DNA of 64,000 nt from Escherichia phage Es2, in the sequence record OR515477.1; one strand, 5' to 3'. This document shows positions 37,197 through 62,030 of this stretch, in pieces. Under the pieces are notes generated by a model. The model made no database searches. It was not told the origin of the DNA and saw nothing but the letters and a program-made list of their open reading frames with translations. The first letter of the stretch is position 1, and every line of letters starts with the position of its first letter. The position numbers and the translations under genes were made by a program.

Positions 37197-38512
37197 TGGA
37201 AGTATCAAGACCCTATGTTAATACAGTAGACGTTATTGACTTCGGAATAGATAAACGTTTCTTCCGTCTACCTGTTTCAGGAATACTAGCACAAGAGGGT
37301 ATTACACCTAATGGTCCTCAAATAGCAATTATTAATGCACTAGAAGACCCTAGACATCGTTTTGTAACAGCGTGTGTGTCACGTCGTGTAGGCAAATCCT
37401 TCATCGCATACACACTTGGGTTTCTAAAATTGCTGGAACCCAATGTGAAGGTGTTAGTAGTTGCCCCTAACTATTCACTGGCTAATATTGGTTGGTCACA
37501 GATTCGTGGTCTTATCAAGAAATATGGGCTACAAACAGAACGTGAGAACGCTAAGGATAAAGAGATTGAGTTAGCTAATGGTTCTCTATTTAAACTAGCT
37601 TCTGCAGCGCAGGCTGACTCCGCAGTTGGACGTTCATATGACTTTATCATTTTTGACGAAGCTGCAATTTCTGATGTAGGTGGTGATGCTTTTAGAGTTC
37701 AGTTGCGACCTACTCTGGATAAGCCTAATTCTAAGGCTCTGTTTATCTCTACTCCTCGTGGTGGTAACTGGTTTAAAGAGTTTTATGCCTACGGATTTGA
37801 TGATACGCTACCTAACTGGGTATCTATTCATGGTACATATCGTGATAACCCTCGTGCCGACCTGAATGACATTGAGGAAGCACGTCGTACTGTTAGTAAA
37901 AACTACTTCCGCCAGGAATATGAGGCTGATTTCTCTGTATTCGAAGGACAGATCTTTGATACCTTTAACGCTATCGATCATGTTAAAGACCTCAAAGGTA
38001 TGCGTCACTTCTTTAAAGATGATGAAGCATTCGAAACATTACTTGGTATTGACGTTGGTTATCGTGATCCTACGGCAGTTCTTACTATTAAATATCATTA
38101 CGATACAGATACTTACTATGTATTAGAAGAGTACCAGCAGGCGGAGAAAACTACAGCTCAACATGCCGCTTATATTCAGCACTGTATAGATCGTTATAAT
38201 GTAGATCGTATCTTTGTTGACTCTGCAGCAGCTCAGTTCCGTCAGGACTTAGCTTATGAACATGAAATTGCATCAGCTCCAGCTAAAAAGTCTGTCCTAG
38301 ATGGCCTAGCATGTTTGCAAGCGCTATTCCAACAGGGTAAGATTATTGTAGATGCTTCATGTTCCTCCCTAATTCATGCATTGCAGAATTATAAGTGGGA
38401 CTTCCAAGAAGGCGAAGAGAAATTATCACGTGAAAAACCACGTCATGATGCTAACTCTCACCTTTGTGATGCACTGCGCTATGGAATTTACTCTATTTCC
38501 CGTGGTAAATAA
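37196..38512 (+). CDS. terminase large subunit
   Basis: 438 aa; Walker A-like RRVGKS and Walker B DFIIFDEA. Confidence 0.85.
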   Translation: MEVSRPYVNTVDVIDFGIDKRFFRLPVSGILAQEGITPNGPQIAIINALEDPRHRFVTACVSRRVGKSFIAYTLGFLKLLEPNVKVLVVAPNYSLANIGWSQIRGLIKKYGLQTERENAKDKEIELANGSLFKLASAAQADSAVGRSYDFIIFDEAAISDVGGDAFRVQLRPTLDKPNSKALFISTPRGGNWFKEFYAYGFDDTLPNWVSIHGTYRDNPRADLNDIEEARRTVSKNYFRQEYEADFSVFEGQIFDTFNAIDHVKDLKGMRHFFKDDEAFETLLGIDVGYRDPTAVLTIKYHYDTDTYYVLEEYQQAEKTTAQHAAYIQHCIDRYNVDRIFVDSAAAQFRQDLAYEHEIASAPAKKSVLDGLACLQALFQQGKIIVDASCSSLIHALQNYKWDFQEGEEKLSREKPRHDANSHLCDALRYGIYSISRGK

Positions 38513-38626
38513 ATAAGTATAGGATGGGATACTACTCAGTTGGTATCCCATTCCTGCATTTTAAAATCCCCTTTACAAATTCGATACGATTATGTATACT
38601 ATATTCATACAGTTGAGGAGAACACT

Positions 38627-40763: not shown

Positions 40764-41396
40764 ATGACACAAGCTGCGATTGACTATAATAAGTTAAAAT
40801 CAGCACCGGTTCATTTAGATGCTTATATTAAATCTATTGATAGCGAATCCAAAGAGGGTGTTGTAAAAATCCGTGGATTCGCTAATACAATTAGTAAAGA
40901 TCGCGCTGGTGATGTAATTCCTGCTTCTGCATGGAAAACGTCTAATGCACTTACTAACTACATGAAAAACCCGATTATTCTTTTCGGACACGATCATCGT
41001 CGTCCAATCGGTAAGTGTATTGATCTTAACCCTACTGAAATGGGCCTCGAAATCGAATGCGAGATCTATGAAAGTTCTGACCCGGCTATCTTTTCACTAA
41101 TTAAAAACGGTGTACTGAAAACTTTTAGTATCGGATTCCGCTGCCTAGATGCAGAGTGGGATGAAGCTACTGATATATTTATTATTAAAGATTTAGAACT
41201 ATACGAAGTTTCGGTAGTTTCTGTACCTTGTAATCAGGACTCAACATTCAATCTCGCTAAGAGTATGAATGGTCATGATTATACTGAATGGCGTAAATCT
41301 TTTACTGCAATAAGTTCTAAAGCTGCCCCAGCTCAAGAACGTAATCTTTCTGAACTAGAAAAACTTGCGATAGCTTTAGGCTACGTTAAAGAATAA
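40764..41396 (+). CDS. prohead protease
   Basis: 210 aa; position immediately upstream of the major capsid gene. Confidence 0.75.
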   Translation: MTQAAIDYNKLKSAPVHLDAYIKSIDSESKEGVVKIRGFANTISKDRAGDVIPASAWKTSNALTNYMKNPIILFGHDHRRPIGKCIDLNPTEMGLEIECEIYESSDPAIFSLIKNGVLKTFSIGFRCLDAEWDEATDIFIIKDLELYEVSVVSVPCNQDSTFNLAKSMNGHDYTEWRKSFTAISSKAAPAQERNLSELEKLAIALGYVKE

Positions 41397-41413
41397 CGGA
41401 GAATTATTTAAAA

Positions 41414-42790
41414 ATGACTATTGATATTAATAAGCTGAAAGAAGAACTTGGTCTGGGTGATCTGGCTAAATCTCTGGAAGGTCTGACCGCTGCTCAGAAA
41501 GCTGCTGAAGCTGAACGTATGCGTAAAGAGCAGGAAGAAAAAGAACTGGCTCGTATGAATGACCTGGTTTCTAAAGCAGTTGGCGAAGATCGTCAGAAAC
41601 TGGAACAAGCTCTGGAACTGGTTAAGTCTCTGGATGAGAAATCTAAGAAGAGCGCAGAACTGTTCGCACAGACCGTAGAAAAACAACAGGAAACTATTGT
41701 TGGTCTTCAGGATGAAATTAAATCTCTGCTGACAGCTCGTGAAGGTCGTTCCTTCGTCGGTGATAGCGTAGCTAAAGCACTGTATGGTACTCAGGAAAAC
41801 TTTGAAGACGAAGTAGAAAAACTGGTTCTGTTATCTTATGTAATGGAAAAAGGCGTATTCGAGACCGAGCATGGTCAGAGACACCTGAAAGCAGTGAATC
41901 AGTCTTCTTCCGTAGAAGTTTCTAGTGAAAGCTATGAAACTATTTTCTCTCAGCGTATTATCCGCGACCTGCAGAAAGAGCTGGTAGTTGGTGCACTGTT
42001 CGAAGAACTGCCGATGTCTAGTAAGATTCTTACTATGCTGGTTGAACCGGATGCTGGTAAAGCTACTTGGGTTGCTGCTTCTACCTATGGTACTGATGCA
42101 ACTACTGGTGATGAAGTTAAAGGCGCTCTTAAAGAAATTCACTTCAGTACTTACAAACTGGCTGCTAAGTCCTTCATTACTGATGAAACTGAAGAAGATG
42201 CAATCTTCTCCCTGCTGCCACTGCTACGTAAGCGTCTGATTGAAGCACACGCTGTTTCTATCGAGGAAGCGTTTATGACCGGTGATGGTACTGGTAAGCC
42301 TAAAGGTCTGTTGACTCTTGCTAGCGAAGATGGTGCTAAAGTTACTACTGAAGCTAAAGCTGATGGTACTGTTCTGGTAACTGCTAAAACCATTTCTAAA
42401 CTACGTCGTAAACTGGGCCGTCATGGTCTGAAACTGAGCAAACTGGTACTTATCGTATCTATGGATGCTTACTATGATCTTCTGGAAGATGAAGAATGGC
42501 AGGATGTTGCACAGGTTGGTAACGATGCTGTTAAACTGCAAGGTCAGGTTGGTCGTATCTATGGTCTGCCGGTTGTAGTTTCTGAGTACTTCCCAGCTAA
42601 AGCAGCTGAGAAAGAGTTCGCAGTTATTGTTTATAAAGATAACTTCGTAATGCCACGCCAGCGTGCTGTTACTGTTGAACGTGAGCGTCAAGCTGGTAAA
42701 CAGCGTGATGCATACTACGTTACTCAGCGTGTTAACCTGCAACGTTACTTTAGTAATGGTGTTGTATCCGGTGCTTACGCTACCGCTTAA
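41414..42790 (+). CDS. major capsid protein precursor with N-terminal scaffolding-like domain
   Basis: 458 aa; coiled-coil-rich N-terminal third. Confidence 0.85.
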   Translation: MTIDINKLKEELGLGDLAKSLEGLTAAQKAAEAERMRKEQEEKELARMNDLVSKAVGEDRQKLEQALELVKSLDEKSKKSAELFAQTVEKQQETIVGLQDEIKSLLTAREGRSFVGDSVAKALYGTQENFEDEVEKLVLLSYVMEKGVFETEHGQRHLKAVNQSSSVEVSSESYETIFSQRIIRDLQKELVVGALFEELPMSSKILTMLVEPDAGKATWVAASTYGTDATTGDEVKGALKEIHFSTYKLAAKSFITDETEEDAIFSLLPLLRKRLIEAHAVSIEEAFMTGDGTGKPKGLLTLASEDGAKVTTEAKADGTVLVTAKTISKLRRKLGRHGLKLSKLVLIVSMDAYYDLLEDEEWQDVAQVGNDAVKLQGQVGRIYGLPVVVSEYFPAKAAEKEFAVIVYKDNFVMPRQRAVTVERERQAGKQRDAYYVTQRVNLQRYFSNGVVSGAYATA

Positions 42791-42810
42791 TACAGGCTTT
42801 TCAGCCGATA

Positions 42811-42836
42811 AGGAGAGCTTCGGCTCTCCTTTTTTA
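42811..42836 (+). terminator. intrinsic terminator
   Basis: Hairpin AGGAGAGC-TTCG-GCTCTCCT followed by TTTTTT. Confidence 0.8.
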
Positions 42837-42849
42837 TTGGGAAAAATAA

Positions 42850-43362
42850 ATGCAAATAATCACAGCTGAAGACTATAGATTATACGGTGGGTTAAAACGA
42901 CCGGAACTAGAATCTGGTGTAGAAATGATGATTACTGCTGCCAATGCGCTGATTACTAGCCTTCTAGGCATGGATGATGCTGATGCGGTAGACCAGTTAA
43001 TCAATACAAAACCTACTCGTAAAAAATACTTTTTAAGTTCTCCCTCAGCTACTTCAGTAACCAAAATGACTATTAATGATAAGGAGATAGATCCCGAGCA
43101 ATACAAGTTATACTCAGATGGGGTTATACTTCTTAAATTTAATCCTCCAGAAGGTTATATGGATGTAGAATACACACAAGGTGGATTTAATCCAATACCT
43201 GAGGATCTCAAACTTGCAGCATGCATGCTAGTAGATCATTGGCACAAACAGGATTATCGCCAAGCTAAAACAATTGGTGGAGAAACAGTTACTTTTAATA
43301 ATACTAAGTCTGGTATACCAGAGCATATTCGTACTATTATTGAAGTCTACAGGAGAGTATAA
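42850..43362 (+). CDS. head-tail connector / head completion protein (putative)
   Basis: 170 aa; position after capsid gene. Confidence 0.55.
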   Translation: MQIITAEDYRLYGGLKRPELESGVEMMITAANALITSLLGMDDADAVDQLINTKPTRKKYFLSSPSATSVTKMTINDKEIDPEQYKLYSDGVILLKFNPPEGYMDVEYTQGGFNPIPEDLKLAACMLVDHWHKQDYRQAKTIGGETVTFNNTKSGIPEHIRTIIEVYRRV

Positions 43363-44129
43363 TGTCTCTTTCTGATTTAGCTACACAAATTATTAAGGAG
43401 CAACTAGATACTGCGGGACGTTCCGAGAATAATAAGAATACCGTTGTATATTCTGTTGAAACAGGACTGAAAGATCCTACTAGAGATGGTACTGTTGCTC
43501 AGGTATCTTTTAAATTCTCAAAACCTGTATCCCAAGACCTCCTTAATGTTAGGACCGCTTCTATTCTAAAAGCAGTTTCTTCTAGCTTAGATCTAACAGG
43601 AGACTTAGGTGCTTTAGAAAGTCTTATTCAAGCAACCGCTGGTAAAAAATCCTCTGTAGGTAAAAAACGTTCTACTGGTAGAGTTCAAGTAAACTTTGGG
43701 GATCCTAGAGACGTAGAAGATGGATATTCTGGTGCAGTAACAGGTGCTTCAGGACGTTTTGTATCTAATAGCAATATGAAGGTTATTCTGGAGTTGGTTG
43801 CTAAAGAATACCTTATAAAGGATATGAAAAAAGCAGGAGCTCCACTTAAATTTAGAACAGGTCGTTTTGCAAATTCTCTAAAAGTTAAAGATGTTATGCT
43901 TAGAGATGCTGGAACTAGCAAAGGTGCTCCTGAATTAAATGTTACATATAATTATATGGTACGTCCATATTCAGTATTTAATCCTGCAGTATCTACATAT
44001 CGAAGGTTGTCATTACGACCCTACCCAGGTGCTAGAAACCCTCAAAGACTAATTGGAGAGGCGATAGCTAAAGCTGCAAGAGACTTAATTCACTCCAGAT
44101 ACAAAATTAAGGTTAATCAAGGAACCTAA
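43362..44129 (+). CDS. head-tail joining / tail completion protein (putative)
   Basis: 255 aa; position. Confidence 0.5.
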   Translation: MSLSDLATQIIKEQLDTAGRSENNKNTVVYSVETGLKDPTRDGTVAQVSFKFSKPVSQDLLNVRTASILKAVSSSLDLTGDLGALESLIQATAGKKSSVGKKRSTGRVQVNFGDPRDVEDGYSGAVTGASGRFVSNSNMKVILELVAKEYLIKDMKKAGAPLKFRTGRFANSLKVKDVMLRDAGTSKGAPELNVTYNYMVRPYSVFNPAVSTYRRLSLRPYPGARNPQRLIGEAIAKAARDLIHSRYKIKVNQGT

Positions 44130-44132
44130 TAA

Positions 44133-44618
44133 ATGGATCACAGAACAAGTATAGCACAAGCTCTGGTTGACCGAATAGCCAAACAAATGGATGGCTCCCA
44201 ACCAGATGAATATTTTAATAACTTGTATGGAAACGTCTCACGTCAAACTTATAAGTTTGAGGAGATAAGAGAGTTTCCTTATGTTGCAGTTCATATCGGA
44301 ACTGAAACTGGGCAGTATCTTCCCTCAGGTCAACAGTGGATGTTTTTAGAACTTCCTATCCTGGTGTATGATAAAGAGAAAACAGACATTCAAGAGCAAC
44401 TTGAAAAACTCGTAGCGGATATAAAAACCGTTATTGACACAGGTGGAAATTTAGAATATACTGTTAGTAAACCTAATGGATCGACCTTCCCATGTGAGGC
44501 GACTGATATGAGCATTACATCAGTTAGTACAGATGAGGGTCTACTGGCCCCATATGGTTTAGCAGAAATAAATGTAACAGTGAGGTATCAGCCTCCACGT
44601 AGGTCACTTCGCAGATAA
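44133..44618 (+). CDS. tail terminator / completion protein (putative)
   Basis: 161 aa; position immediately upstream of the tail tube gene. Confidence 0.5.
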   Translation: MDHRTSIAQALVDRIAKQMDGSQPDEYFNNLYGNVSRQTYKFEEIREFPYVAVHIGTETGQYLPSGQQWMFLELPILVYDKEKTDIQEQLEKLVADIKTVIDTGGNLEYTVSKPNGSTFPCEATDMSITSVSTDEGLLAPYGLAEINVTVRYQPPRRSLRR

Positions 44619-44644
44619 GTTACAGATTAGGAGAAAATAATTAA

Positions 44645-46051
44645 ATGTCTTTACAACTATTACGTAATACTCGAATCTTCGTGTCTACGGTTAAGACTGG
44701 TCACGATAAGACCAACACGCAAGAGATTCTAGTTCAGGATGATATTTCTTGGGGTCAGGACAGTAACTCAACAGATATTACTGTTAACGAAGCTGGTCCG
44801 CGTCCTACTCGTGGTTCTAAACGTTTTAACGATTCTTTAAATGCGGCTGAGTGGAGTTTTTCTACTTATATCCTGCCATACAAGGATAAAACTACTAGCA
44901 AACAAATTGTCCCTGACTATATGTTATGGCATGCACTTTCTAGTGGTAAAGCTATTAACCTTGATGGAGATACCGGAGCACATAATAATGCTACTAACTT
45001 CATGGTTAACTTCAAAGATAACGCATATCACGAACTGGCTATGCTGCATATTTACATTCTAACTGACAATGCGTGGAGTTACATTGACTCTTGCCAGATC
45101 AACCAGGCAGAAGTTAACGTTGATATTGAAGATATTGGTCGTGTAACTTGGTCTGGTAATGGTAATCAGCTCATCCCGTTAGACAGCCAACCATTTGACC
45201 CTGATGCATTAGGTATTGATGATGAAACCTATATGGCTATTCAGAGTTCTTACATTAAGAACAAGTTAACTATCCTAAAAATTAAGGATATGGATTCTGA
45301 TAAGGCATATGATATTCCTATTACTGGTGGTACTTTTACCATTAATAACAACATCACGTACCTAACCCCGAATATTATGTCACGTGTAAATATTCCAATC
45401 GGCTCATTTACTGGTGCGTTTGAACTAACGGGTTCTTTGACAGCATACCTTAATGATAAGTCTCTAGGATCTATGGAATTATATAAAGATCTAATTAAAA
45501 CCCTTAAGGTAGTTAACCGTTTTGAAATCGCACTTATTTTGGGTGGTGAATATGACGAGGAACGTCCGGCAGCTGTGTTAGTTGCTAAACAGGCGCACGT
45601 TAACATTCCTACTATTGAGACTGATGATGTACTTGGTACTTCAGTAGAGTTTAAGGCTATTCCTACAGATTTGGATACTGGTGACGAGGGTTATCTCGGA
45701 TTTTCTAACAAGTATACAAAAACTACTGTGGCTAATCTGATTGCTACGGGGGATGGTGCTAAAACTCCACCAAAACTAGTTGAATCAATCACAGTTAAAT
45801 CTGCTGGTGAGGCTACTTCTGTAACAAATAGTAATACTTTACAGATGTCTGTTGAGGTAACACCTCCAGAAGCTACTAATAAGGCTGTAACTTGGTCTAT
45901 TTCTAGCGGTAACGCAGCTACGATTGATGCAGAATCAGGGTTATTAACAGCTGATGCTTCTAGAACTGGTGCAGTTACTGTGAAGGCTGTAGCTAAAGAC
46001 GGTTCTGGTGTAGAAGGTACTAAAACTATCACAGTTAGTGCTGGTGGTTAA
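44645..46051 (+). CDS. major tail tube protein with C-terminal Ig-like domain (pb6-like)
   Basis: 468 aa; C-terminal Ig-like segment VTVKAVAKDGSGVEGTKTITVSAG. Confidence 0.8.
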   Translation: MSLQLLRNTRIFVSTVKTGHDKTNTQEILVQDDISWGQDSNSTDITVNEAGPRPTRGSKRFNDSLNAAEWSFSTYILPYKDKTTSKQIVPDYMLWHALSSGKAINLDGDTGAHNNATNFMVNFKDNAYHELAMLHIYILTDNAWSYIDSCQINQAEVNVDIEDIGRVTWSGNGNQLIPLDSQPFDPDALGIDDETYMAIQSSYIKNKLTILKIKDMDSDKAYDIPITGGTFTINNNITYLTPNIMSRVNIPIGSFTGAFELTGSLTAYLNDKSLGSMELYKDLIKTLKVVNRFEIALILGGEYDEERPAAVLVAKQAHVNIPTIETDDVLGTSVEFKAIPTDLDTGDEGYLGFSNKYTKTTVANLIATGDGAKTPPKLVESITVKSAGEATSVTNSNTLQMSVEVTPPEATNKAVTWSISSGNAATIDAESGLLTADASRTGAVTVKAVAKDGSGVEGTKTITVSAGG

Positions 46052-46055
46052 ATAA

Positions 46056-46955
46056 ATGTACTACTCTCTAATGCGAGAGTCAAAAGTTATAGTTGAGTAT
46101 GATGGTAGGGCATTTCATTTTGATGCCCTATCAAACTATGATGTACAAACCTCCTACGAGGAATTCAAGACTCTTCGTAGGACTGTTCATCGTAGAACTA
46201 ACTATGCAGACTCTATTATAAATGCTCAAACCCCTTCTTCTATCTCTCTAGCAGTAAATTTTAGTAATACTCTTACTGAAGCTAACTTCTTTGAATGGTT
46301 AGGTTTTGATAGAAAAGGTAATACTTTCTTACTCCCATTATATAGTAATAATATTGAACCTATTATGTTTAATATCTATATAGTAAATAAAGATAATAAC
46401 TGTGTATATTTTGAAAACTGCTATGTATCTACAGTAGATTTTTCTTTAGATAAAAATATACCAATTCTTAATGTTGGTATTGAATCGGGAAAATTTTCCG
46501 AAGTATCTACGTATAGGGAAGCAGCTTCTATTATACAGGGTGAAGTAATGTCTTACAGCCCAGTAATAGCTTCTACTAATGGCAGCATCTTACCAGGTCT
46601 TATTTCTGCCTCTTTATCTTTCCAACAGCAGTGCTCCTGGAGAGAGGATAAGAGTGTTTTTGATATAAATAAAATTTATAATAATAAAAGAGCTTATGTA
46701 ACTGAAATGAATGCTTCGGCAACCATTTCTCTGTACTACTTAAAACGTTTTGCAGGAGACATGGTTTACAATATCGAACCGGAGATAGATGTACCATTAA
46801 ATATAAGAAATAATAATATTTCTATAGATTTTCCTTCAGCACGTATTACAAAACGCCTAGATTTCTCAGATGTGTATAGAGTTGAGTGGGATATTATACC
46901 TACTGCTTCTTCAGACCCAGTGAGAATAGATTTCTTTGGAGAAATTAAAAAATGA
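46056..46955 (+). CDS. tail tip ring protein (p140-like)
   Basis: 299 aa; position and size. Confidence 0.6.
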   Translation: MYYSLMRESKVIVEYDGRAFHFDALSNYDVQTSYEEFKTLRRTVHRRTNYADSIINAQTPSSISLAVNFSNTLTEANFFEWLGFDRKGNTFLLPLYSNNIEPIMFNIYIVNKDNNCVYFENCYVSTVDFSLDKNIPILNVGIESGKFSEVSTYREAASIIQGEVMSYSPVIASTNGSILPGLISASLSFQQQCSWREDKSVFDINKIYNNKRAYVTEMNASATISLYYLKRFAGDMVYNIEPEIDVPLNIRNNNISIDFPSARITKRLDFSDVYRVEWDIIPTASSDPVRIDFFGEIKK

Positions 46956-47356
46956 TTAATTTAAAAGATATTACTCTCGATACTCGTACTATTACTCTTT
47001 CCTACCCGGGTATGCCGAACTTTAAACTAGAACTTAACTATATGTCTCGTGCTACCTCTAAACGTGTTATTTCTTCTGCTAAACGCGATGAATGGGTTAA
47101 TGGTACTTTGATTCAGGTACAGGATGATGATAAGTTCATTGAAGCCTTTGTTGACGCAGCTATTAAAGGTTGGACCGGTTTGACTGTAGGTGATGTTGAA
47201 AAACTGATGCTGATTGAAACAGATGCTGATCCTGCTACTGAAGTTCCTTTTAGCCGCGATAATGCTGTAATGCTCATGCAGAACTCTGCTGCGTTTGATT
47301 CTTGGATCAACCAGACAGTGTTCCACTTAGATACTTTTCGTAGCCCAAAAGCGTAA
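46952..47356 (+). CDS. tail assembly chaperone (putative)
   Basis: 134 aa; position upstream of tape measure. Confidence 0.5.
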   Translation: MINLKDITLDTRTITLSYPGMPNFKLELNYMSRATSKRVISSAKRDEWVNGTLIQVQDDDKFIEAFVDAAIKGWTGLTVGDVEKLMLIETDADPATEVPFSRDNAVMLMQNSAAFDSWINQTVFHLDTFRSPKA

Positions 47357-47417
47357 AGAACTTCTAGATGCTGTTGCTGATTTCGCAGATAAATGTATTA
47401 AAAGCTCAGCATCTAAA

Positions 47418-47786
47418 ATGACCAAACAACAATATTTAATACTTTGTGAGTCAATGGGTATAGAACCTGATCCTAAGGCTATGCCTGTTGAACTCGAAGA
47501 TTTTCCACCTATTGTGGCTATTAGTATGAATATTTATAATAGTCTGATTGACTGCTTCATACCAAGTGACTTTCCTATCTTTATAGGTAAAGATAAGGCT
47601 GCTCTAGGTGTTTTATTTGATATTTATGGGATTACTGATCCTATAGAGAAAGAATTTGTTCTACACATTATCAATATATTTGATGCTAAAGCTGTAGATG
47701 CTGCACGTAAACGTGCTGAGAAGCATAAACCGCAAAACGGAAGGATTCCTAACGTTAAGCCACATGCTAGATCTCGTGCACGGTAA
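47418..47786 (+). CDS. hypothetical tail assembly protein
   Basis: 122 aa; basic C-terminus; position upstream of tape measure. Confidence 0.5.
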   Translation: MTKQQYLILCESMGIEPDPKAMPVELEDFPPIVAISMNIYNSLIDCFIPSDFPIFIGKDKAALGVLFDIYGITDPIEKEFVLHIINIFDAKAVDAARKRAEKHKPQNGRIPNVKPHARSRAR

Positions 47787-47821
47787 AAGTTTCCTCCAAT
47801 GGGCGTTCCACGATGAGGCTT

Positions 47822-47853
47822 GGCTCTGGGTGATTTGCCCAGAGCCTTTTTTA
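47822..47853 (+). terminator. intrinsic terminator
   Basis: Hairpin GGCTCTGGG...CCCAGAGCC followed by TTTTTT. Confidence 0.8.
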
Positions 47854-47869
47854 TTGGGAAAAATAAAAT

Positions 47870-50800
47870 ATGACTGACAAGCTAATACGAGAATTACTAA
47901 TAGACGTTAAACAGAAGGGGGCAACTCGTACTGCAAAGTCTATTGAAAACGTATCTGATGCATTAGAGAATGCTGCTGCTGCTTCTGAACTAACAAATGA
48001 GCAGTTAGGTAAAATGCCCAGAACTCTTTATTCCATTGAGAGGGCAGCAGACAGAGCAGCGAAAAGTCTTACTAAAATGCAAGCTAGTAGGGGTATGGCT
48101 GGTATCACTAAATCCATTGATGGTATTGGTGATAAGCTAGACTACCTAGCTATCCAGCTTATTGAAGTAACAGATAAACTAGAAATTGGATTCGATGGAG
48201 TTTCTAGATCTGTTAAAACAATGGGTAATGATGTTGCAGCTGCAACAGAAAAAGTCCAGGATAGATTATACGATACTAATAGAGCATTAGGTGGCACAGC
48301 TAGGGGTTTTAATGATACTGCTGGTGCCGCTGGTAGAGCTTCTAGAGCTATTGGTAATACTTCTGGTTCAGCACGTGGTGCAACTCGTGATTTTGCGGCA
48401 ATGGCTAAGATCGGTGGTAGTCTACCTATTATGTACGCAGCTCTTGCTTCCAACATCTTCGTTTTGCAATCAGCATTTGAACAACTTAAACTAGGTGATC
48501 AGCTAAATCGTCTAGAAAAATTTGGTGTTATAGTAGGTACTCAGACAGGTACTCCTGTTCAGACCCTTGCTAGATCGTTACAAGAAGCTGCCGGATATGC
48601 TATTTCTTTTGAGGAAGCAATGAGACAGGCATCTTCAGCATCTGCTTATGGATTTGATGCTGAACAACTTAATAAATTTGGTTTAGTAGCTCGTCGTGCG
48701 GCTGCTGTTCTTGGCGTTGATATGACTGATGCACTTAACCGTGTAATTAAGGGCGTATCTAAACAAGAAATCGAACTTCTGGATGAACTTGGTGTTACTA
48801 TTCGCCTTAACGATGCTTATGCTGATTACGTTAAACAGTTAAATGCTGCAAACACAGGTATAACATATAATGTTAATAGTCTTACCACTTTCCAGAAACA
48901 ACAAGCATACGCTAACGCGGTAATTGCTGAATCTACTAAGCGGTTTGGCTACCTAGATGAAGTACTACGTGCAACTCCATGGGAGCAATTTGCTGCTAAT
49001 GCAGATGCTGCACTAAGAAAAATACAACAAGCTGCTGCTAAGTATTTAGGGCCAGTAATTGATGCTATCAATACAGTATTTTATACATCTCAGGCTTCTA
49101 TATCTGCGGAGGCAGCTAGAGCTCAAGAAAAAACTAATAGACAGATAGACCCTACCAACGTTGGTGCTGTTGCTTTAAGTTTAGCTGCTTCTGAAGAAGG
49201 CTATAATAAAGCTCTAGATATGTATAAGGAATCTCTTGATAAGCGTAATAAGCTAAAATCTGAGTTCGATAAACGAATGGAACAAGCAGATTTCTATACA
49301 AAACTAGCTATACGTCAAGTTGGTGAAGGTATTCCTGTTGGTCTCGCAGCAGCAGGTGCTTCGGAGGCCAATAAGCAATTTGTAGCAGAAACTGCAGCTA
49401 TGGGTCTACAAGTAACTAGACTTGGTAAGGAAGTAGAGGATTCTACAGAGAACCTCAATGCTTGGAAATCAGCGTATCAAGCTGCTGGGGCTGCTGCTGC
49501 AAAGGCTAGTCCAGAGTTTCAGAAGCAAATTAATCTACAGAGAGATACTACTGATCCTGATGCTGTATACGATTTTAATTCTACTGTATTAAAAGGTCTA
49601 ACTGAGCAACAGAAAGCGTACAATCAGACTAAGAAAACTGCTAGTGACTTAGCTAATGATATACAGAACGTTGCTCAGAATACAGATACTGCTGCTAAAA
49701 CTAGTGCTACTTTAGCAGATGCTATAAAAAACATAGAATCTCTATCTCTAGGTACTGGTAAGAGTGCTGATGAATACGTTAAAAATCTTAACCTAGGCTA
49801 CAACACTCTGTCTGAAATGAAAACTGCGTCTCAGGCCTTATCTGAGTACGTTAAACTAACCGGTAATGAGACTAAGAACCAGTTAGCAGTTCAACAGAAG
49901 ATAGCTGACGTATACAACCAAACTAAAGATAAAGAAAAGGCACAGGAAGCCGGTAGGCGTTTAGAACTCCAACAGTTAGAAGAGCAAGAAGCTGCTTTAC
50001 GCCGTGTTCTTCAAACAAACCAGGGAAATAAAGCTGTTGAGAAAGAAATTGAAAAAATTCAGCTGGAGAAACTTAAACTTACTAATCAGGGTATGGAGGC
50101 TCAGAAGAAAGTTAAGGATTATACAGATAAAATTCTGGGTGTAGACCGTGAGATAGCTCTTCTGAATGACCGTACTATGACTAGCACTCAGTATAGATTA
50201 GCACAGTTAAGGTTAGAACTAACCATAGAGGAAGAAAAATACGAGTGGTACTTAAAACAAGCGGATAAACAAAAAGAGGCAGAGCAGTCTAGACGTGCTC
50301 AAGCACAGATAAGTAGAGAGTTATGGGAAGCAGAGAAACAAGCTACTGCTACTCATGTATCCGCCCTTATGGATGCCTTAGAGGTTAGCCAAACGCAGAG
50401 AAATGTCACTGGTCAGTCACAGATTCTCACTGAAAGGTTATCTATTCTGCAGCAGCAGCTGGAACTGTCTAAAGGTAATACTGAAGAAGAAATTAAATAT
50501 CGTAATGAGATTTATAAAACTTCAGCAGCCTTAGAGCAGCTTAGAAAACAGAGAGATAGCCAGATGCAGCAACAGGTAGGGTCTTCTGTAGGTGCTGTAT
50601 ATACTCCTACAACTGGACTATCTGGAGAAGATAAAGATTTTGCTGATATGGGAAATAGAATGGCTTCTTATGATCAGGCAATCTCTAAACTATCTGAGCT
50701 AAACTCTGAAGCAACCGCTGTAGCTCAAAGCATGGGTAACTTAACCAATGCTATGATTCAATTCTCTCAGGGATCTTTAGATACTACATCTATGATTGCT

Positions 50801-51550
50801 TCCGGTATGCAGACTGTGGCCTCTATGATTCAATATAGTACTAGTCAACAGGTTAGTGCAATTGATCAGGCTATTGCAGCAGAGCAGAAACGAGATGGTA
50901 AATCTGAAGCATCTAAAGCTAAACTGAAAAAGTTAGAAGCTGAAAAGCTGAAGATTCAACAAGACGCAGCTAAGAAGCAGATTATCATCCAAACTGCCGT
51001 AGCTGTAATGCAGGCGGCAACAGCTGTACCTTACCCGTTCTCTATCCCTCTAATGGTAGCGGCAGGTTTGGCAGGTGCATTAGCTCTTGCTCAAGCATCT
51101 TCTGCATCTGGTATGTCAAGTATTGCTGATTCTGGAGCGGATACAACTAGTTACCTAACCTTAGGAGAGCGCCAGAAGAATATAGATGTGTCTATGTCTG
51201 CTAATGCTGGTGAATTATCTTATATTCGTGGCGATAAAGGCATAGGCGGTGCTAATTCATTTGTGCCTCGTGCCGAAGGTGGTAATATGTACCCTGGGGT
51301 TAGCTATCAAATGGGGGAGCATGGTACAGAAGTAGTTACCCCTATGGTTCCTATGAAAGCTACGCCTAATGATGAGCTAAAAACCTCATCCAACTCAACT
51401 TCAGGAAGACCTATCATCCTGAATATTAGTGCTATGGATGCTGCAAGTTTTAGAGAGTTTGCTTCTAGTAATAGTGGTGCTCTAAGAGACGCGGTAGAAT
51501 TAGCTCTGAATGAGAACGGTGCTAGTCTGAAAACATTAGGAAATTCTTAA
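47870..51550 (+). CDS. tape measure protein (pb2-like)
   Basis: 1226 aa; long coiled-coil regions, Ala/Gly-rich hydrophobic stretch near C-terminus. Confidence 0.85.
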   Translation: MTDKLIRELLIDVKQKGATRTAKSIENVSDALENAAAASELTNEQLGKMPRTLYSIERAADRAAKSLTKMQASRGMAGITKSIDGIGDKLDYLAIQLIEVTDKLEIGFDGVSRSVKTMGNDVAAATEKVQDRLYDTNRALGGTARGFNDTAGAAGRASRAIGNTSGSARGATRDFAAMAKIGGSLPIMYAALASNIFVLQSAFEQLKLGDQLNRLEKFGVIVGTQTGTPVQTLARSLQEAAGYAISFEEAMRQASSASAYGFDAEQLNKFGLVARRAAAVLGVDMTDALNRVIKGVSKQEIELLDELGVTIRLNDAYADYVKQLNAANTGITYNVNSLTTFQKQQAYANAVIAESTKRFGYLDEVLRATPWEQFAANADAALRKIQQAAAKYLGPVIDAINTVFYTSQASISAEAARAQEKTNRQIDPTNVGAVALSLAASEEGYNKALDMYKESLDKRNKLKSEFDKRMEQADFYTKLAIRQVGEGIPVGLAAAGASEANKQFVAETAAMGLQVTRLGKEVEDSTENLNAWKSAYQAAGAAAAKASPEFQKQINLQRDTTDPDAVYDFNSTVLKGLTEQQKAYNQTKKTASDLANDIQNVAQNTDTAAKTSATLADAIKNIESLSLGTGKSADEYVKNLNLGYNTLSEMKTASQALSEYVKLTGNETKNQLAVQQKIADVYNQTKDKEKAQEAGRRLELQQLEEQEAALRRVLQTNQGNKAVEKEIEKIQLEKLKLTNQGMEAQKKVKDYTDKILGVDREIALLNDRTMTSTQYRLAQLRLELTIEEEKYEWYLKQADKQKEAEQSRRAQAQISRELWEAEKQATATHVSALMDALEVSQTQRNVTGQSQILTERLSILQQQLELSKGNTEEEIKYRNEIYKTSAALEQLRKQRDSQMQQQVGSSVGAVYTPTTGLSGEDKDFADMGNRMASYDQAISKLSELNSEATAVAQSMGNLTNAMIQFSQGSLDTTSMIASGMQTVASMIQYSTSQQVSAIDQAIAAEQKRDGKSEASKAKLKKLEAEKLKIQQDAAKKQIIIQTAVAVMQAATAVPYPFSIPLMVAAGLAGALALAQASSASGMSSIADSGADTTSYLTLGERQKNIDVSMSANAGELSYIRGDKGIGGANSFVPRAEGGNMYPGVSYQMGEHGTEVVTPMVPMKATPNDELKTSSNSTSGRPIILNISAMDAASFREFASSNSGALRDAVELALNENGASLKTLGNS

Positions 51551-51554
51551 AACT

Positions 51555-51584
51555 GGAGGAGGACTTTGAGTCCTCCTTTTCTTT
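51555..51584 (+). terminator. intrinsic terminator
   Basis: Hairpin GGAGGAC-TTTGA-GTCCTCC followed by TTTTCTTT. Confidence 0.75.
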
Positions 51585-51659
51585 ATGGAAAAATAAAAAT
51601 TTCTTGATAAAATTTTCTAATACTATTATAATAATTGTATCTAAGAGGAGAAATTAACT

Positions 51660-52274
51660 ATGAGATTACCAGACCCATACACGAATCCAGAACTTTCAGG
51701 ATTAGGATTCGAAAGTGTTAACCTGATTGATAATGACCCAGTAATTCGTGATGAGTTACCTAATGGTAAAGTTAACGAAGTTAAGGTATCTGCTCAGTAC
51801 TGGGGTATAAATATTTCTTACCCAGAATTGTTTCCCGATGAATATAGTGTTCTCGATTCCTTTATTCTAGAGTATAAGAGGACAGGAGGCTATATTGATG
51901 TTATATTACCTCAGTATGAGGCTTTTAGGGTTAGGGGTAATACTAACTTAGTAAATATACCAGCAGGACAAAAAGGCTCCAATATTACTATGGATACAAA
52001 AGGTATTCTTACGGGTATCCCTAAACCAGGTGATTTATTTAAGTTATCCAATCACCCAAAAGTTTATAAAATAACATCATTTAATAGATCTGGTAATTCA
52101 TGGTCTATTAACGTATATCCTGACCTATTTATAACTACTACTGGAGCTGAAAAACCAGTATTTAATGGGATACTATTTAGAACAAAACTCATGAATGGTG
52201 ATGCTTTCGGATCTACATTAAATAATAATGGAACATACTCCGGCATCTCATTAAATTTACGGGAAAGTTTATGA
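51660..52274 (+). CDS. distal tail protein (Dit, pb9-like)
   Basis: 204 aa; position after tape measure. Confidence 0.75.
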   Translation: MRLPDPYTNPELSGLGFESVNLIDNDPVIRDELPNGKVNEVKVSAQYWGINISYPELFPDEYSVLDSFILEYKRTGGYIDVILPQYEAFRVRGNTNLVNIPAGQKGSNITMDTKGILTGIPKPGDLFKLSNHPKVYKITSFNRSGNSWSINVYPDLFITTTGAEKPVFNGILFRTKLMNGDAFGSTLNNNGTYSGISLNLRESL

Positions 52275-55120
52275 AAAAAATACTAGATAGTGCTAGAAAC
52301 TACTTAAAAAATAATAGCAGAATAAAAACTGCTAGTCTAATTTCTTTAGAATTACCTGGCTCTACTGGTACTAGTACTGCTTTTATTTACTTAACTGACT
52401 ATTTTAGAGATGTACTATATAATGGTATTTTGTACCAGGCCGGTAAAGTTAAGTCTATTAGCACACATAAACAAAATAGAGATTTATCTATTGGCAGCCT
52501 ATCTTTTACTATTACAGGTACAGCGCAGGATGAAGTACTGAAATTAGTGCAGAATGGTGTATCTTTTTTAGACAGATTAGTATCAATTCACCAAGCAATT
52601 ATTACAGAAGATGGTTCTATTTTATCTGTAGACCCAGACACAAATGGGCCTTTATTATACTTTAGAGGTAGAATTACTGGTGGAGGTATTAAGGATAATA
52701 TTAGCACTTCGGGAGTTGGAACCTCCACAATTACTTGGAATTGTTCTAACCAATTCTATGATTTTGATAGGGTTAATGGTAGATTTACTGATGATGCTTC
52801 TCATAGAGGGCTTGAAGTTGTAGCAGGACAATTACTTCCATCTAACGGGGCTAAAAGACTTGAGTACCAAGAAGACTACGGTTTCTTTCATGCCAATAAA
52901 AGTATCTCTATTCTAGCAAAGTATCAGGTACAGGAAGAAAGATACAAACTAAAGTCTAAGAAAAAGCTATTTGGACTATCTAGAAGTTATAGTCTTAAAA
53001 AGTATTATGAGACTGTTACTAAAGAAGTAGATATAGATTTTAACCTTGCTGCTAAGTATATACCAGTAGTTTATGGTGTACAGAAAATACCAGGAATACC
53101 TATTTTTGCGGATACGGAATTACATAATCCTAACATAGTTTATGTAGTATATGCTTTTGCTGAAGGAGAGATAGACGGTTTTCTTGACTTTTCCTTTGGG
53201 GATAACCCTATGATTTGTATGGACTCTAATGATAGCTCCGCTAGAACCTGCTTTGGTACTAAAAAAGTGGCTGGGGACACCATGCAAAGAATAGCGTCAG
53301 GAACACCTTCTAGTAGTCCTTCCGTTCATGGGCAGGAGTATAAGTATAATGATGGTAATGGTGACATAAGAATTTGGACGTATCATGGAAAACCTGACCA
53401 AACGGCTTCTGAAGTACTAGTAGATATAGCTAAAGAACGTGGGTTCTACCTTCAGAATATGAATGGCAATGGACCGGAGTATTGGGATGCTAGGTATAAA
53501 CTACTAGATACTGCATACGCAGTGGTGCGCTTCACTATTAATGAAAATAGGACTGAGATTCCTGAAGTTAGTGCTGAAATTCAAGGTAAAAAAGTAAAAG
53601 TCTATCATTCTGATGGTAGAGTAACTGCTAATAGTACTAGTTTAAATGGTATTTGGCAAACACTTGATTACTTAACCTCTGATAGATATGGCGCTAATAT
53701 TACCCTTGATCAGTTCCCTCTTCAGCAACTAATACAGGAAGCAGCTATTTTAGATATTATAGATGAATCCTATCAGGTATCTTGGCAGCCGTATTGGAGA
53801 TACGTTGGGTGGACTGATCCACTAGCAGAAAATAGACAAATAGTACAAATGAATACTATTCTGGATACATCTGAATCAGTATTTAAAAATGTGCAAGGTT
53901 TATTAGAGTCCTACGGTGGGGCTATTAACAATTTATCTGGCCAGTATAGAGTTACTGTAGAAAAATACTCTAATACTCCGCTAGAGATTAATTTTCTAGA
54001 TACTTACGGTGATTTGGAGCTATCAGATACTACTGGTAGAAATAAATTCAATTCAGTTCAAGCATCTATCGTAGATCCCGCCCTTAGTTGGAAAACTAAT
54101 TCCATTACATTCTATAATTCCAAGTATAAGGAACAGGACAAGAACCTAGATAAAAAATTACAACTGTCTTTTGCTAATATTACTAATTATTATACTGCAA
54201 GAAGTTTTGCTGATAGGGAGCTTAAGAAATCCAGATACTCAAGAACACTCTCTTTCTCATTACCATATCAATTCATTGGTATTGAACCTAATGATGCTAT
54301 TGCATTTACATACGACCGTTATGGGTGGGATAAGAAGTATTTCCTAGTAGACGAAGTGGAAAACTCTAGGGAAGGAAAAATAAATGTTACCCTACAGGAA
54401 TATGGAGAAGATGTATTTATCAATTCTGAGCAGGTTGATAATAGCGGTAATGATATTCCTGATATTAGTAATAATGTCCTTCCTCCTAGAGACTTTAAAT
54501 ATACTCCTACTCCTGGCGGTTTAGTAGGCTCTATAGGTAAAAATGGTGAGTTATCTTGGCTTCCGAGTCTAACCAATAATGTAGTCTATTACTCTATCGT
54601 GCATTCCGGTCATGCTGAACCTTATATTGTGCAGCAACTAGAAACAAATCCCAACGAACGGATGATCCAAGAGATAATTGGAGAGTCTGCAGGTTTAGCA
54701 ATATTTGAAATAAGGGCTGTGGATATAAACGGTAGAAGAAGTTCTCCAGTAACATTATCTATAGAACTTAACTCTGCTAAAAACCTAAGTGTAGTATCTA
54801 ATTTTAGGGTAACTAATACGGCTTCTGGGGATGTAACTGAGTTTGTAGGCCCAGATGTAAAACTAGCTTGGGATAGAATACCAGAAGAAGATATAATAGA
54901 GAGTATATTCTATACTCTGGAGATCTATGATTCCCAGAATAGAATGCTAAGAAGTGTACGTATTGAAAATCAGTATACTTATGACTATTTATTAACGTAT
55001 AATAAGGCAGATTTTGCTCTTCATAACAGTGATGCTCTAGGAATCAATAGAAAACTATATTTTCGTATTAGAGCAGAAGGAGATGATGGAGAACAGTCTG
55101 TGGAGTGGGCATCCATTTAA
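52271..55120 (+). CDS. baseplate hub protein (pb3-like)
   Basis: 949 aa; position and size. Confidence 0.8.
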   Translation: MKKILDSARNYLKNNSRIKTASLISLELPGSTGTSTAFIYLTDYFRDVLYNGILYQAGKVKSISTHKQNRDLSIGSLSFTITGTAQDEVLKLVQNGVSFLDRLVSIHQAIITEDGSILSVDPDTNGPLLYFRGRITGGGIKDNISTSGVGTSTITWNCSNQFYDFDRVNGRFTDDASHRGLEVVAGQLLPSNGAKRLEYQEDYGFFHANKSISILAKYQVQEERYKLKSKKKLFGLSRSYSLKKYYETVTKEVDIDFNLAAKYIPVVYGVQKIPGIPIFADTELHNPNIVYVVYAFAEGEIDGFLDFSFGDNPMICMDSNDSSARTCFGTKKVAGDTMQRIASGTPSSSPSVHGQEYKYNDGNGDIRIWTYHGKPDQTASEVLVDIAKERGFYLQNMNGNGPEYWDARYKLLDTAYAVVRFTINENRTEIPEVSAEIQGKKVKVYHSDGRVTANSTSLNGIWQTLDYLTSDRYGANITLDQFPLQQLIQEAAILDIIDESYQVSWQPYWRYVGWTDPLAENRQIVQMNTILDTSESVFKNVQGLLESYGGAINNLSGQYRVTVEKYSNTPLEINFLDTYGDLELSDTTGRNKFNSVQASIVDPALSWKTNSITFYNSKYKEQDKNLDKKLQLSFANITNYYTARSFADRELKKSRYSRTLSFSLPYQFIGIEPNDAIAFTYDRYGWDKKYFLVDEVENSREGKINVTLQEYGEDVFINSEQVDNSGNDIPDISNNVLPPRDFKYTPTPGGLVGSIGKNGELSWLPSLTNNVVYYSIVHSGHAEPYIVQQLETNPNERMIQEIIGESAGLAIFEIRAVDINGRRSSPVTLSIELNSAKNLSVVSNFRVTNTASGDVTEFVGPDVKLAWDRIPEEDIIESIFYTLEIYDSQNRMLRSVRIENQYTYDYLLTYNKADFALHNSDALGINRKLYFRIRAEGDDGEQSVEWASI

Positions 55121-61995: not shown

Positions 61996-62030
61996 GAAAA
62001 CCCCAGTGGACAAAATCCACTGGGGTTTTA
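61996..62030. terminator. bidirectional intrinsic terminator between convergent genes
   Basis: Hairpin CCCCAGTGGA...TCCACTGGGG flanked by an A-run upstream and T-run downstream. Confidence 0.8.

Follow-up and report, generated by a model that had tools for sequence, protein, structure and literature searches.

In the late region of this T5-like phage (Demerecviridae), the terminator after the capsid gene and the terminator before the tape measure gene are followed by the same 21-mer, TTTTTTATTGGGAAAAATAAA, which runs into the start codon of the next gene. An earlier note had described this arrangement, together with a variant of the string behind a third terminator, and proposed that the fixed terminator-plus-leader cassette is a late promoter lacking a -35 region or an element of translational coupling. 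Is the box a new kind of late promoter, or something more familiar? From an analysis of the window (the whole 64-kb stretch of DNA) and of related phages, we conclude that the observation is real and largely ordinary, and that for the most part it is already annotated. The box is probably the U-rich tail of a terminator joined to the weak ribosome-binding site (RBS) of the following gene, an ordinary step-down in expression and not a new late promoter.

The 21-mer box has a three-part anatomy

Exact copies of the 21-mer occur at two places on the + strand of the window, 42830-42850 (site 1) and 47847-47867 (site 2), confirming both copies reported, and no further match was found there when up to 3 mismatches were allowed. 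None of 100 dinucleotide shuffles of the window contained a 21-mer match, and the chance expectation is none. Identity between the two copies reaches 23 nt (CC plus the 21-mer). Both sit directly 3′ of strong hairpins and lead into an ATG, as had been claimed: at site 1 the A of the adaptor ATG at 42850 is the last A of the 21-mer, and at site 2 AT separates the end of the 21-mer from the ATG at 47870. Read in order, the box consists of a terminator U-tract (its first 9 nt, TTTTTTATT, 8 of them T) and 12 nt made up of a weak Shine-Dalgarno (SD) core, GGGA, and an A-rich spacer to the start codon. The features of the three junctions are collected in Table 1.

Table 1. Genes, hairpins, box elements and promoters at the three late-region junctions
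Feature	Position	Strand	Basis or remark
Major capsid protein gene, T5.149/pb8 homologue	41414..42790	+	ORF; T5 annotation; abundant product upstream of cassette 1
Mini-hairpin GGCU-UUUC-AGCC, directly 3′ of capsid stop codon	42795..42806	+	
Terminator hairpin 1, AAGGAGAGC-UUCG-GCUCUCCUU, C(UUCG)G tetraloop	42810..42831	+	Scan (predicted); T5 annotates terminator
U-tract of terminator 1, TTTTTTATT, first 9 nt of 21-mer	42830..42838	+	Directly 3′ of hairpin
Weak SD core GGGA of adaptor gene	42839..42842	+	7 nt before ATG; anti-SD duplex -4.2 kcal/mol
A-rich spacer AAAATAA, SD to ATG	42843..42849	+	Sequence
Head-tail adaptor gene, 170 aa, T5.148 homologue	42850..43362	+	ORF; T5 annotation
Late promoter P-J5, TTGACA-17-TATACT, inside tail-terminator gene	44434..44462	+	11/12 match; T5 'promoter P-J 5', same place
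Conserved non-coding element TTTCCTCCAATGGGCGTTCCACGATGAGGC, 30 nt, between chaperone stop codon and hairpin 2	47790..47819	+	
Terminator hairpin 2, GGCUCUGGG-UGAUUUG-CCCAGAGCC	47822..47846	+	Scan (predicted); T5 annotates terminator
Second 21-mer: U-tract 47847-47855, GGGA 47856-47859, A-rich spacer	47847..47867	+	SD duplex -4.2 kcal/mol
Tape measure protein gene, pb2 homologue, 1226 aa	47870..51550	+	ORF; annotations
Terminator hairpin 3, after tape measure gene	51555..51579	+	Scan; dG about -16 kcal/mol; T5 annotates terminator
Box 'variant' GGAAAAATAAAAAT, A/T-rich putative UP-element zone of P-G25	51587..51600	+	About -52 to -39, from -35 at 51604
Late promoter P-G25, TTGATA-17-TATAAT	51604..51632	+	11/12 match; T5 annotation
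SD AAGAGGAG, then ATG 51660 of distal tail protein gene	51643..51650	+	

Predicted terminators and a weak Shine-Dalgarno core

Hairpins 1-3 fold with energies of -15.0, -20.3 and about -16 kcal/mol and z scores of -3.3 to -5.2 (-4.35 for hairpin 1, -5.2 for hairpin 2). At sites 1 and 2 the stem is followed directly by the U-tract, and both hairpins lie on the coding strand of all late genes, downstream of a stop codon (hairpin 1 begins 20 nt past that of the capsid gene, hairpin 2 36 nt past the upstream one). By sequence and structure, hairpins 1 and 2 are thus predicted intrinsic (Rho-independent) terminators. Their stems covary: in hairpin 1, G-C is replaced by a compensatory A-U in lineages L021 and L023 and a G-C pair is added in My1, and in hairpin 2, compensatory changes affect 6 of the 9 pairs, with 96% of cells paired across 9 lineages. 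The mini-hairpin between the capsid stop codon and hairpin 1 keeps GGC..GCC in all enterobacterial lineages, its fourth pair being U-A in some and A-U in others. A search of 41000-53000 against Rfam gave no match at E<=1.

The GGGA core precedes the ATG by 7 nt at site 1 and by 10 nt at site 2, the latter on the long side for an SD. Its duplex is weak, at -4.2 kcal/mol for both genes, where pb9 reaches -9.1 and the strongest of the late genes -11.6, and the adaptor and tape measure genes have SD pairings among the weakest of the late genes. In the Shivani record, GGA within the box is annotated as the RBS. The position is retained despite changes in sequence, with GGAGG, GAGG, GGAG, AGGTGA, GGGTGA, AGG or GG occupying it across 9 lineages; the first four of these are consensus SDs, which other genera carry in place of the T5-like GGGA. 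At site 1 it is filled by GGAGG in Vibrio phi 3 (TTTTTTATTGGAGGTAATAAAATG, GGAGG taking the place of the G-run), by GAGG in L035 and by GGAG in My1; at site 2, relatives have AGGTGA, GAGG or GGA, and their box-to-ATG junctions differ as well (TAAATG, TAAAACATG, TAAAATATG). The length of the adaptor in a cryo-EM model, 170 residues (PMC11313276), agrees with an ORF starting at ATG 42850. The idea of a fixed terminator-plus-leader cassette is supported by these features: the cassette is conserved, and the box belongs to the region where translation of the following gene initiates.

Translational coupling, the second half of the earlier proposal, stands only in so far as the box belongs to a translation-initiation region. 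The classical termination-reinitiation form does not fit, the stop-to-start gaps being 59 nt and 83 nt with a stable hairpin within each. We also considered that an A-U hairpin (TTTTATT/AATAAAA) might expose the SD in its loop, and rejected this: dG is at least 0 at 13 of 15 sites, and the summed energy is no better than that of arm-shuffled controls (27% of nulls as good).

The boxes lack promoter elements, and the third string lies in P-G25

A -35-less late promoter, read by a phage-modified RNA polymerase and starting transcription of the next gene, would be a plausible guess on three counts: the box is conserved after terminators, where re-initiation signals are frequent; site 3 has a real late promoter; and host RNAP is modified by T5 phage proteins (PMC7472727). 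A consensus scan and manual inspection of 42790-42900 and 47780-47900 nevertheless found no promoter-like site on the + strand. There is no TGn extended -10 (TGnTAnnnT) in or around either box and no -10 hexamer TAnnnT placed so that a transcript from it would include RBS and start codon, the sole TAAAAT abutting the site-2 ATG. Because the ATG lies within the box at site 1 and 2 nt past it at site 2, a transcript driven from a -10 in the box would carry neither start codon nor RBS; at neither site is there room for a start and a leader. Both mapped T5 late promoters, P-J5 and P-G25, are of the canonical sigma-70 type and have a -35. The box, moreover, is present in only 2 copies per genome, yet late transcription units are more numerous; beyond the T5 and Epseptimavirus genera just the T-tract and an SD-like core persist; and in T5 itself the insertion of an endonuclease gene has removed the site-2 box. 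On this evidence we regard a promoter at the boxes as extremely unlikely.

At site 3, a related string does follow the terminator at 51555, as the earlier note described: behind the hairpin comes TTTCTTTATGGAAAAATAAAAAT, which has GGAAAAATAAA in common with the 21-mer. It does not continue straight into an ATG, since the promoter at 51604-51632 and an AGAGGAG Shine-Dalgarno intervene before ATG 51660. P-G25 has the sequence features of a sigma-70 promoter with an UP element, namely a -35 and a -10 at 17-nt spacing and an A/T-rich tract in the -40 to -60 zone, and GGAAAAATAAAAAT falls within the fragment that T5 annotates as 'promoter P-G 25'. At site 3, every genus sampled has a TTG-type -35 preceded by an A/T-rich tract. 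The look-alike string, judged from its sequence, is a putative UP-element part of the canonical sigma-70 promoter P-G25, a job other than that of the boxes. With GGAAAAATAAAAATTTC at about -52 to -36, adjoining the -35 TTGATA, it resembles strong sigma-70 UP elements such as that of rrnB P1, and the legend to Fig. S5 of PMC7472727 refers to an UP element marked in the alignments of T5 promoters. At sites 1 and 2 the similar string has no -35 or -10 downstream, so that it is not an UP element there. T5 late genes are preceded by strong sigma-70 promoters (Klimuk 2020; PMC7472727), and late kinetics were recorded by primer extension for both P-J5 and P-G25 (PMC7472727). P-J5 restarts transcription for the tail-tube block.

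A proposed step-down in expression at both junctions

With no promoter between either hairpin and its ATG, read-through would be the sole route to the adaptor and tape measure genes. Late transcripts arriving from upstream would mostly stop at the hairpin, leaving abundant mRNA protected by a 3′ hairpin (of the capsid gene at site 1, and at site 2 of the block that runs from tail tube to chaperone), and the fraction of polymerases that reads through would transcribe the next gene. We infer that termination at T5-like boxes is partial in this manner and that the SD core is used; the weakness of the SD would then keep the translation rate of adaptor and tape measure low. The U/A-rich flanks may aid initiation as an S1-type enhancer, and A/U-rich enhancers are known to act jointly with SDs (PMC2176067). 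Partial termination and weak initiation together would produce a big drop in output, a rationale that would suit the stoichiometry of the virion, in which 775 copies of the capsid protein stand against 12 of the adaptor, and the tail-tube protein, encoded ahead of the tape measure, is present in 120 copies (PMC11313276). Past the tape measure terminator, transcription would be restarted by P-G25.

The same hairpin and AU-rich box could be read as mainly a module of RNA processing or stability, with termination secondary, in which an endonucleolytic cut in the single-stranded U/A-rich stretch would leave the upstream mRNA protected by its hairpin and the downstream mRNA short-lived. RNase E prefers contexts like a stable C(UUCG)G hairpin with single-stranded AU-rich RNA, which the C(UUCG)G hairpin and AU-rich RNA found here would, by analogy, resemble. 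Each site has two hairpins in tandem on its upstream side, and processing predicts an equal step-down in expression. A hairpin followed by a tract of 8/9 U, however, fits the definition of an intrinsic terminator with no extra assumptions, and no feature of the sequence demands processing, which is in any case compatible with the terminator model. We consider it quite improbable that processing is the main function.

Conservation of the cassettes

Both whole intergenic cassettes are 98-100% identical across Tequintavirus and Epseptimavirus, and the flanking coding sequence is less conserved (75-87% at third codon positions, 94-98% at positions 1 and 2). Subfamilies that share only 32% identity in the adaptor protein have an almost unchanged site-1 stem. 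No T5-like genome has more than two copies of the box, and copies lie at these two sites only. Whether the box is kept in relatives, a point on which the promoter proposal depended, has a divided answer: it is exact in two genera, but beyond these only the T-tract and an SD-like core remain. The 9-mer TTTTTTATT stands behind the hairpin at almost every counterpart of sites 1 and 2 in the different genera; T-tract and G-core persist, and the spacer varies between genera. The order of capsid stop, hairpin, T-tract, SD and adaptor ATG is found in every Demerecviridae lineage sampled, even with an unrelated hairpin sequence. T5 is without the site-2 box because the homing-endonuclease gene T5.141, of the HNH type, was inserted exactly after TTTTTTATT.

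We rejected the idea that the two boxes evolve in concert throughout the family, since their similarity within genomes is only marginal (p=0.04; 0.12 minus T5-likes). A mobile terminator-RBS module common to unrelated phages was ruled out as well. The 21-mer recurs on one marine contig, where it separates a different hairpin from an unrelated tape measure (TMP) gene, and it is missing from the nearest cultured relative of that contig. The box has 2 independent non-T5 matches and composition-matched control 21-mers have 0 and 2, so that the non-T5 matches are at chance level.

The 30-nt element beside site 2 is 100% conserved in T5-likes and persists across genera, including Vibrio phi 3. It occurs once in the window and shows almost no covariation. 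A coding role was ruled out, the frame not being kept among close relatives. Pairing of a conserved upstream UUCCA or UUUCCUCC with the SD of the TMP gene, which would sequester it, is found in the T5 and Klebsiella lineages; it is absent in PM135 and KKP_3711, though both keep the element, so sequestration fails to account for its conservation.

Constraint beyond a terminator and an SD

The conservation of the cassettes exceeds the need of a generic terminator and weak RBS, and the exact identity of the A-rich spacer at both sites is beyond what the terminator and SD model requires. That model does not fully explain the constraint on the cassettes or the element before hairpin 2, and new biology, if there is any here, would have to lie in the degree of conservation or in this element.

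One candidate explanation is that each near-invariant cassette (mini-hairpin or 30-nt element, hairpin, box) is an RNA operator at which a dedicated trans-acting factor (an sRNA, or an RNA-binding protein of phage or host) sets read-through, by antitermination, or translation of the adaptor and tape measure genes. Adaptor and tape measure output would then follow assembly needs, and the identity of the boxes would reflect shared recognition beyond shared layout. Such an operator would account for two intergenic segments conserved almost wholly, and above the coding sequence, for exact identity of both boxes in two genera, for a site-1 stem kept as sequence and not as structure alone, and for the otherwise unexplained 30-nt element adjoining site 2. 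On the other hand, box positions outside the SD vary across the family, and the marginal within-genome similarity of the boxes, the missing site-2 box in T5 and the lack of an Rfam family also weigh against it. We know of no T5 RNA-binding regulator. P-G25 and other regulatory intergenic regions, moreover, look equally invariant in T5-like phages, so that strong conservation of regulatory DNA seems general in this group. We judge operators of this kind unlikely.

Constraint might also act on the boxes as DNA, if they were targets of homing endonucleases or recombination, or module boundaries, homogenised between co-infecting phages and not kept by selection for expression. The exact placement of T5.141 behind TTTTTTATT fits this, as does the insertion, in L021, L023 and L028, of an ORF that follows the capsid stop codon and precedes the site-1 hairpins and whose C-terminal part resembles that of T5.141 (common LPDGYTETC motif); the upstream parts of both cassettes also align above chance (p=0.002). 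The insertion points at the two sites are unlike, however, and the layout is kept in lineages with unrelated hairpins, which favours a function in expression. A role as DNA would add a use of the boxes without explaining their anatomy, and we hold it to be very unlikely.

Relation to known systems

T5 (NC_005859; Gentz & Bujard 1985; Klimuk et al. 2020, PMC7472727) has the same three hairpins at the same gene junctions, with P-G25, including the site-3 'variant', after the pb2 terminator and P-J5 inside the tail-terminator gene, as in the window. The T5 record differs in that the RBS is unannotated, the identity of the two terminator tails and leaders is unremarked, and the site-2 box is gone (T5.141). 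In phage T7, the major capsid gene, gene 10, is followed by the terminator T-phi, which transcription passes in part to reach genes 11 and 12. The likeness to the terminator-and-weak-SD arrangement proposed here is that a terminator stands right behind the most abundant structural gene and lower-copy downstream genes need read-through; the difference is that T-phi acts on T7 RNA polymerase, whereas the T5-like cassette would be an intrinsic terminator for host RNAP with its U-tract abutting the next SD. The E. coli rnd gene reportedly has a terminator-like stem-loop and a U8 tract upstream of its RBS that are needed for translation. It has the order of hairpin, U-run and weak initiation region in common with the boxes, and the U-rich stretch may be a landing site for the ribosome or S1; the rnd structure, however, is part of a 5′ leader, with no known role in termination, and an enhancer role of the T5 U-tract is something we only infer. 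Hairpins of the C(UUCG)G type are said to occur in intercistronic regions of phage T4. Site 1 likewise has an extra-stable tetraloop between cistrons of a late phage mRNA, but with a full U-tract after the stem, and no homology to T4 is implied.

For the annotation and engineering of T5-like phages, the two junctions should not carry promoter labels; they would set the drop in expression from high-copy to low-copy virion proteins. Being better conserved than the proteins encoded beside them, the cassettes are good markers and good targets for tuning expression.

The late region and its repeated box

Many Tequintavirus genomes, NBSal003 and phiLLS among them, are 92-97% identical to the region 42000-52300, which matches about 550 Demerecviridae records. 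Gene names in the window were transferred directly from the T5 annotation and are collected in the table with the other features discussed here.

Features of the late region of phage Es2 and related elements in the window
Feature	Position	Strand	Remarks
Hairpin	38522-38553		13 pairs
Major capsid gene	41414-42790	+	T5 annotation
Mini-hairpin	42795-42806		GGCU-UUUC-AGCC
Hairpin 1	42810-42831		dG -15.0 kcal/mol
21-mer box, site 1	42830-42850
Head-tail adaptor gene	42850-43362	+	T5 annotation
Tail completion and tail terminator genes	after head-tail adaptor, before tail tube	+	T5 annotation
P-J5	44434-44462		TTGACA-17-TATACT; annotated in T5
Tail tube gene	44645-46051	+	T5 annotation
Minor tail protein gene	between tail tube and chaperone ORFs	+	T5 annotation
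Two chaperone ORFs	46952-47356, 47418-47786	+	T5 annotation
30-nt element	47790-47819
Hairpin 2	47822-47846		dG -20.3 kcal/mol
21-mer box, site 2	47847-47867
Tape measure gene pb2	47870-51550	+	T5 annotation
Box variant, site 3	51587-51600
P-G25	51604-51632		TTGATA-17-TATAAT; annotated in T5
Distal tail protein gene	51660-52274	+	T5 annotation
pb3, then pb4 genes	downstream of distal tail protein gene	+	T5 annotation
Hairpin	61997-62029		14-15 pairs

An earlier note described an identical 21-mer, TTTTTTATTGGGAAAAATAAA, that follows a terminator and leads into the start codon at two sites. This description was borne out: there are exactly two copies, both adjoin strong hairpins and both run into an ATG. 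At up to 3 mismatches the window holds no other copy, and 100 shuffles yielded no match. When the search was extended to 2.9 million viral contigs, T5-like genomes carried at most two exact copies, invariably at these two junctions. The repeat is real and functional, yet it combines two ordinary signals.

Anatomy of the box

We compared the junctions in 34 IMG/VR loci and in T5, Proteus PM135, Pectobacterium My1, a Klebsiella phage, Eos, Enterobacter KKP_3711 and two Vibrio phages. At the adaptor junction the order is the same in all lineages sampled: capsid stop codon, hairpin, T-tract (near-constant as TTTTTTATT), purine-rich core, A/T spacer and adaptor ATG. In Tequintavirus and Epseptimavirus the core reads GGGA (in a few, GG or AGG); it is GGGT in Klebsiella and Proteus phages, GGGTGA in Eos, GAGG in the compared locus L035, GGAG in My1, and GGAGG, within TTTTTTATTGGAGGTAATAAAATG, in Vibrio phi 3. 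The tape-measure junction behaves in the same way, with GGGA, GGA, GGATGA, GAGG or AGGTGA. These variants, at both junctions and across lineages, place the G-run at the Shine-Dalgarno (SD) position, and the box is thus a terminator U-tract joined to a weak SD with its A-rich spacer. For the adaptor and tape measure genes alike, calculated pairing with the anti-SD amounts to -4.2 kcal/mol, one of the weakest values in a set of 24 late genes (pb9, -9.1; best, -11.6 kcal/mol). In public records one part is already labelled a terminator and another a ribosome-binding site (RBS), as with the GGA within the box in the Shivani record; what remains of interest is the unusually strong conservation and an adjoining 30-nt element.

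Two elaborations were rejected: an A-U hairpin displaying the SD in its loop is unstable, and SD sequestration by this upstream element fails to hold across lineages. Elsewhere in the region, the second chaperone ORF is virtually without an SD (-0.1 kcal/mol), and its start lies 61 nt past the end of the first, consistent with a programmed-frameshift extension like that of lambda G/GT.

Substitution patterns show the hairpins to be real structures. In the hairpin 2 stem, compared over nine lineages, 6 of the 9 pairs show compensatory changes and 96% of cells are paired, falling to 36-57% in slid controls. Hairpin 1, with its C(UUCG)G tetraloop, hardly varies among enterobacterial lineages; a compensatory G-C to A-U change occurs in loci L021 and L023 and an extra G-C pair in My1, and an unrelated hairpin stands in for it in the Vibrio phages. 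Directly 3' of the capsid stop codon lies a mini-hairpin, GGC..GCC(GA) in all enterobacterial lineages, whose fourth pair is U-A or A-U by lineage. Of the more distant hairpins, that at 38522 lies between an ORF ending at 38512 and one starting with TTG at 38540, overlaps this start codon and has no clear T-tract; that at 61997 is a perfect palindrome flanked by A and T runs and looks like a bidirectional terminator at the end of the late plus-strand block, facing minus-strand genes.

An unsupported promoter reading and a probable read-through model

The same note had taken the box for a possible late promoter lacking a -35 region, a reading that is not supported. The ATG lies within the box at site 1 and 2 nt past it at site 2, so a -10 element anywhere in the box would place the transcription start within the coding sequence, and a consensus scan found no promoter-like site at either box. 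The limit of two copies per T5-like genome and the loss of the site-2 copy in T5 count against this reading too. P-J5 and P-G25 are both canonical, with -35 hexamers; they show late kinetics by primer extension, and strong promoters of the sigma-70 class are described upstream of late genes (PMC7472727). The variant at site 3 does share GGAAAAATAAA, but it does not lead directly into an ATG, since a promoter and a strong SD intervene. It spans about -52 to -39 of P-G25, within the annotated promoter fragment, and is its A/T-rich upstream (UP-element) zone.

Neither hairpin is separated from its ATG by a promoter. Read-through would therefore be the sole route to expression of the tape measure gene and of the genes for adaptor, tail completion and tail terminator (as far as P-J5). 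Most likely, incomplete termination and weak initiation together produce a large step-down, which would fit virion stoichiometry: 775 capsid copies versus 12 adaptor and 6 tail-terminator, and 120 of the tail-tube protein, encoded ahead of the tape measure (PMC11313276). The hairpin would also shield the abundant mRNA upstream at its 3' end, and the U/A-rich flanks of the weak SD could serve as an S1-type enhancer (PMC2176067).

Conservation, origin and insertions

In a set of about 25 distinct Tequintavirus and Epseptimavirus sequences, the two intergenic segments are 98-100% conserved over their whole length; in flanking codons the figures are 94-98% at positions 1 and 2 and 75-87% at position 3. 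In PM135, with an adaptor protein of only 32% identity, the site-1 cassette retains about 90% identity. This constraint exceeds the needs of a generic terminator and weak RBS. P-G25 appears equally invariant in these phages, so strong constraint on regulatory DNA may be the rule among them.

Within-genome similarity of the two boxes is marginal over nine lineages (p=0.04; p=0.12 without T5-likes), and their exact identity is lineage-specific. Outside the shared 23-mer, 42788-42827 (GGCTTTTCAGCCGATAAGGAGAGCTTCGGCTCT) aligns with 47784-47844 (GGCGTTCCACGATGAGGCTTGGCTCT) better than shuffles do (p=0.002); alignments upstream of the box in other lineages keep the same register and are individually non-significant. 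These alignments hint that the cassettes may stem from an ancient duplication.

Both cassettes also appear to have received homing endonucleases. In T5 (L001, 7947-8722) the HNH endonuclease gene T5.141 is inserted exactly after the site-2 T-tract; the insertion removed the box copy, and pb2 is coupled to T5.141 by an ATGA overlap at its start. In the NR01/SP3-like genomes (L021, L023, L028), an inserted ORF separates the capsid stop codon from the site-1 hairpins, upstream of position 9940; its C-terminal part resembles that of T5.141, including a common LPDGYTETC motif. The same genomes show a compensatory change in the stem (AGAGAGC/GCTCTCT) and have GG instead of GGG.

Outside T5-likes, the exact 21-mer occurs in metagenomic viral contigs L048 (9511-9531, minus strand; identical sequence in L079) and L089 (5265-5285). 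In L048, a marine contig, the hairpin ahead of it is a different one, GCCGCTTTTAAGCGGC, and the ATG it leads into belongs to an unrelated tape measure protein (phrog_9483). Composition-matched control 21-mers gave 0 and 2 matches, so these copies are compatible with chance or convergence, and we rejected the tape-measure association as a meaningful link because it is within the chance level of the control set.

A conserved element beside site 2

Between the stop codon of the second chaperone ORF and hairpin 2 lies a non-coding 30-nt element, TTTCCTCCAATGGGCGTTCCACGATGAGGC, single-copy in the window. Conservation is 100% in T5-likes; the Klebsiella, Eos, My1, PM135 and KKP_3711 lineages have near-identical copies, and the element can still be recognised in Vibrio phi 3. 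The reading frame is not preserved, covariation across lineages is almost absent and Rfam returned no match. The element contains an anti-SD-like CCUCC, and we speculate that the element and the terminator jointly look like a 3'UTR-derived sRNA module.
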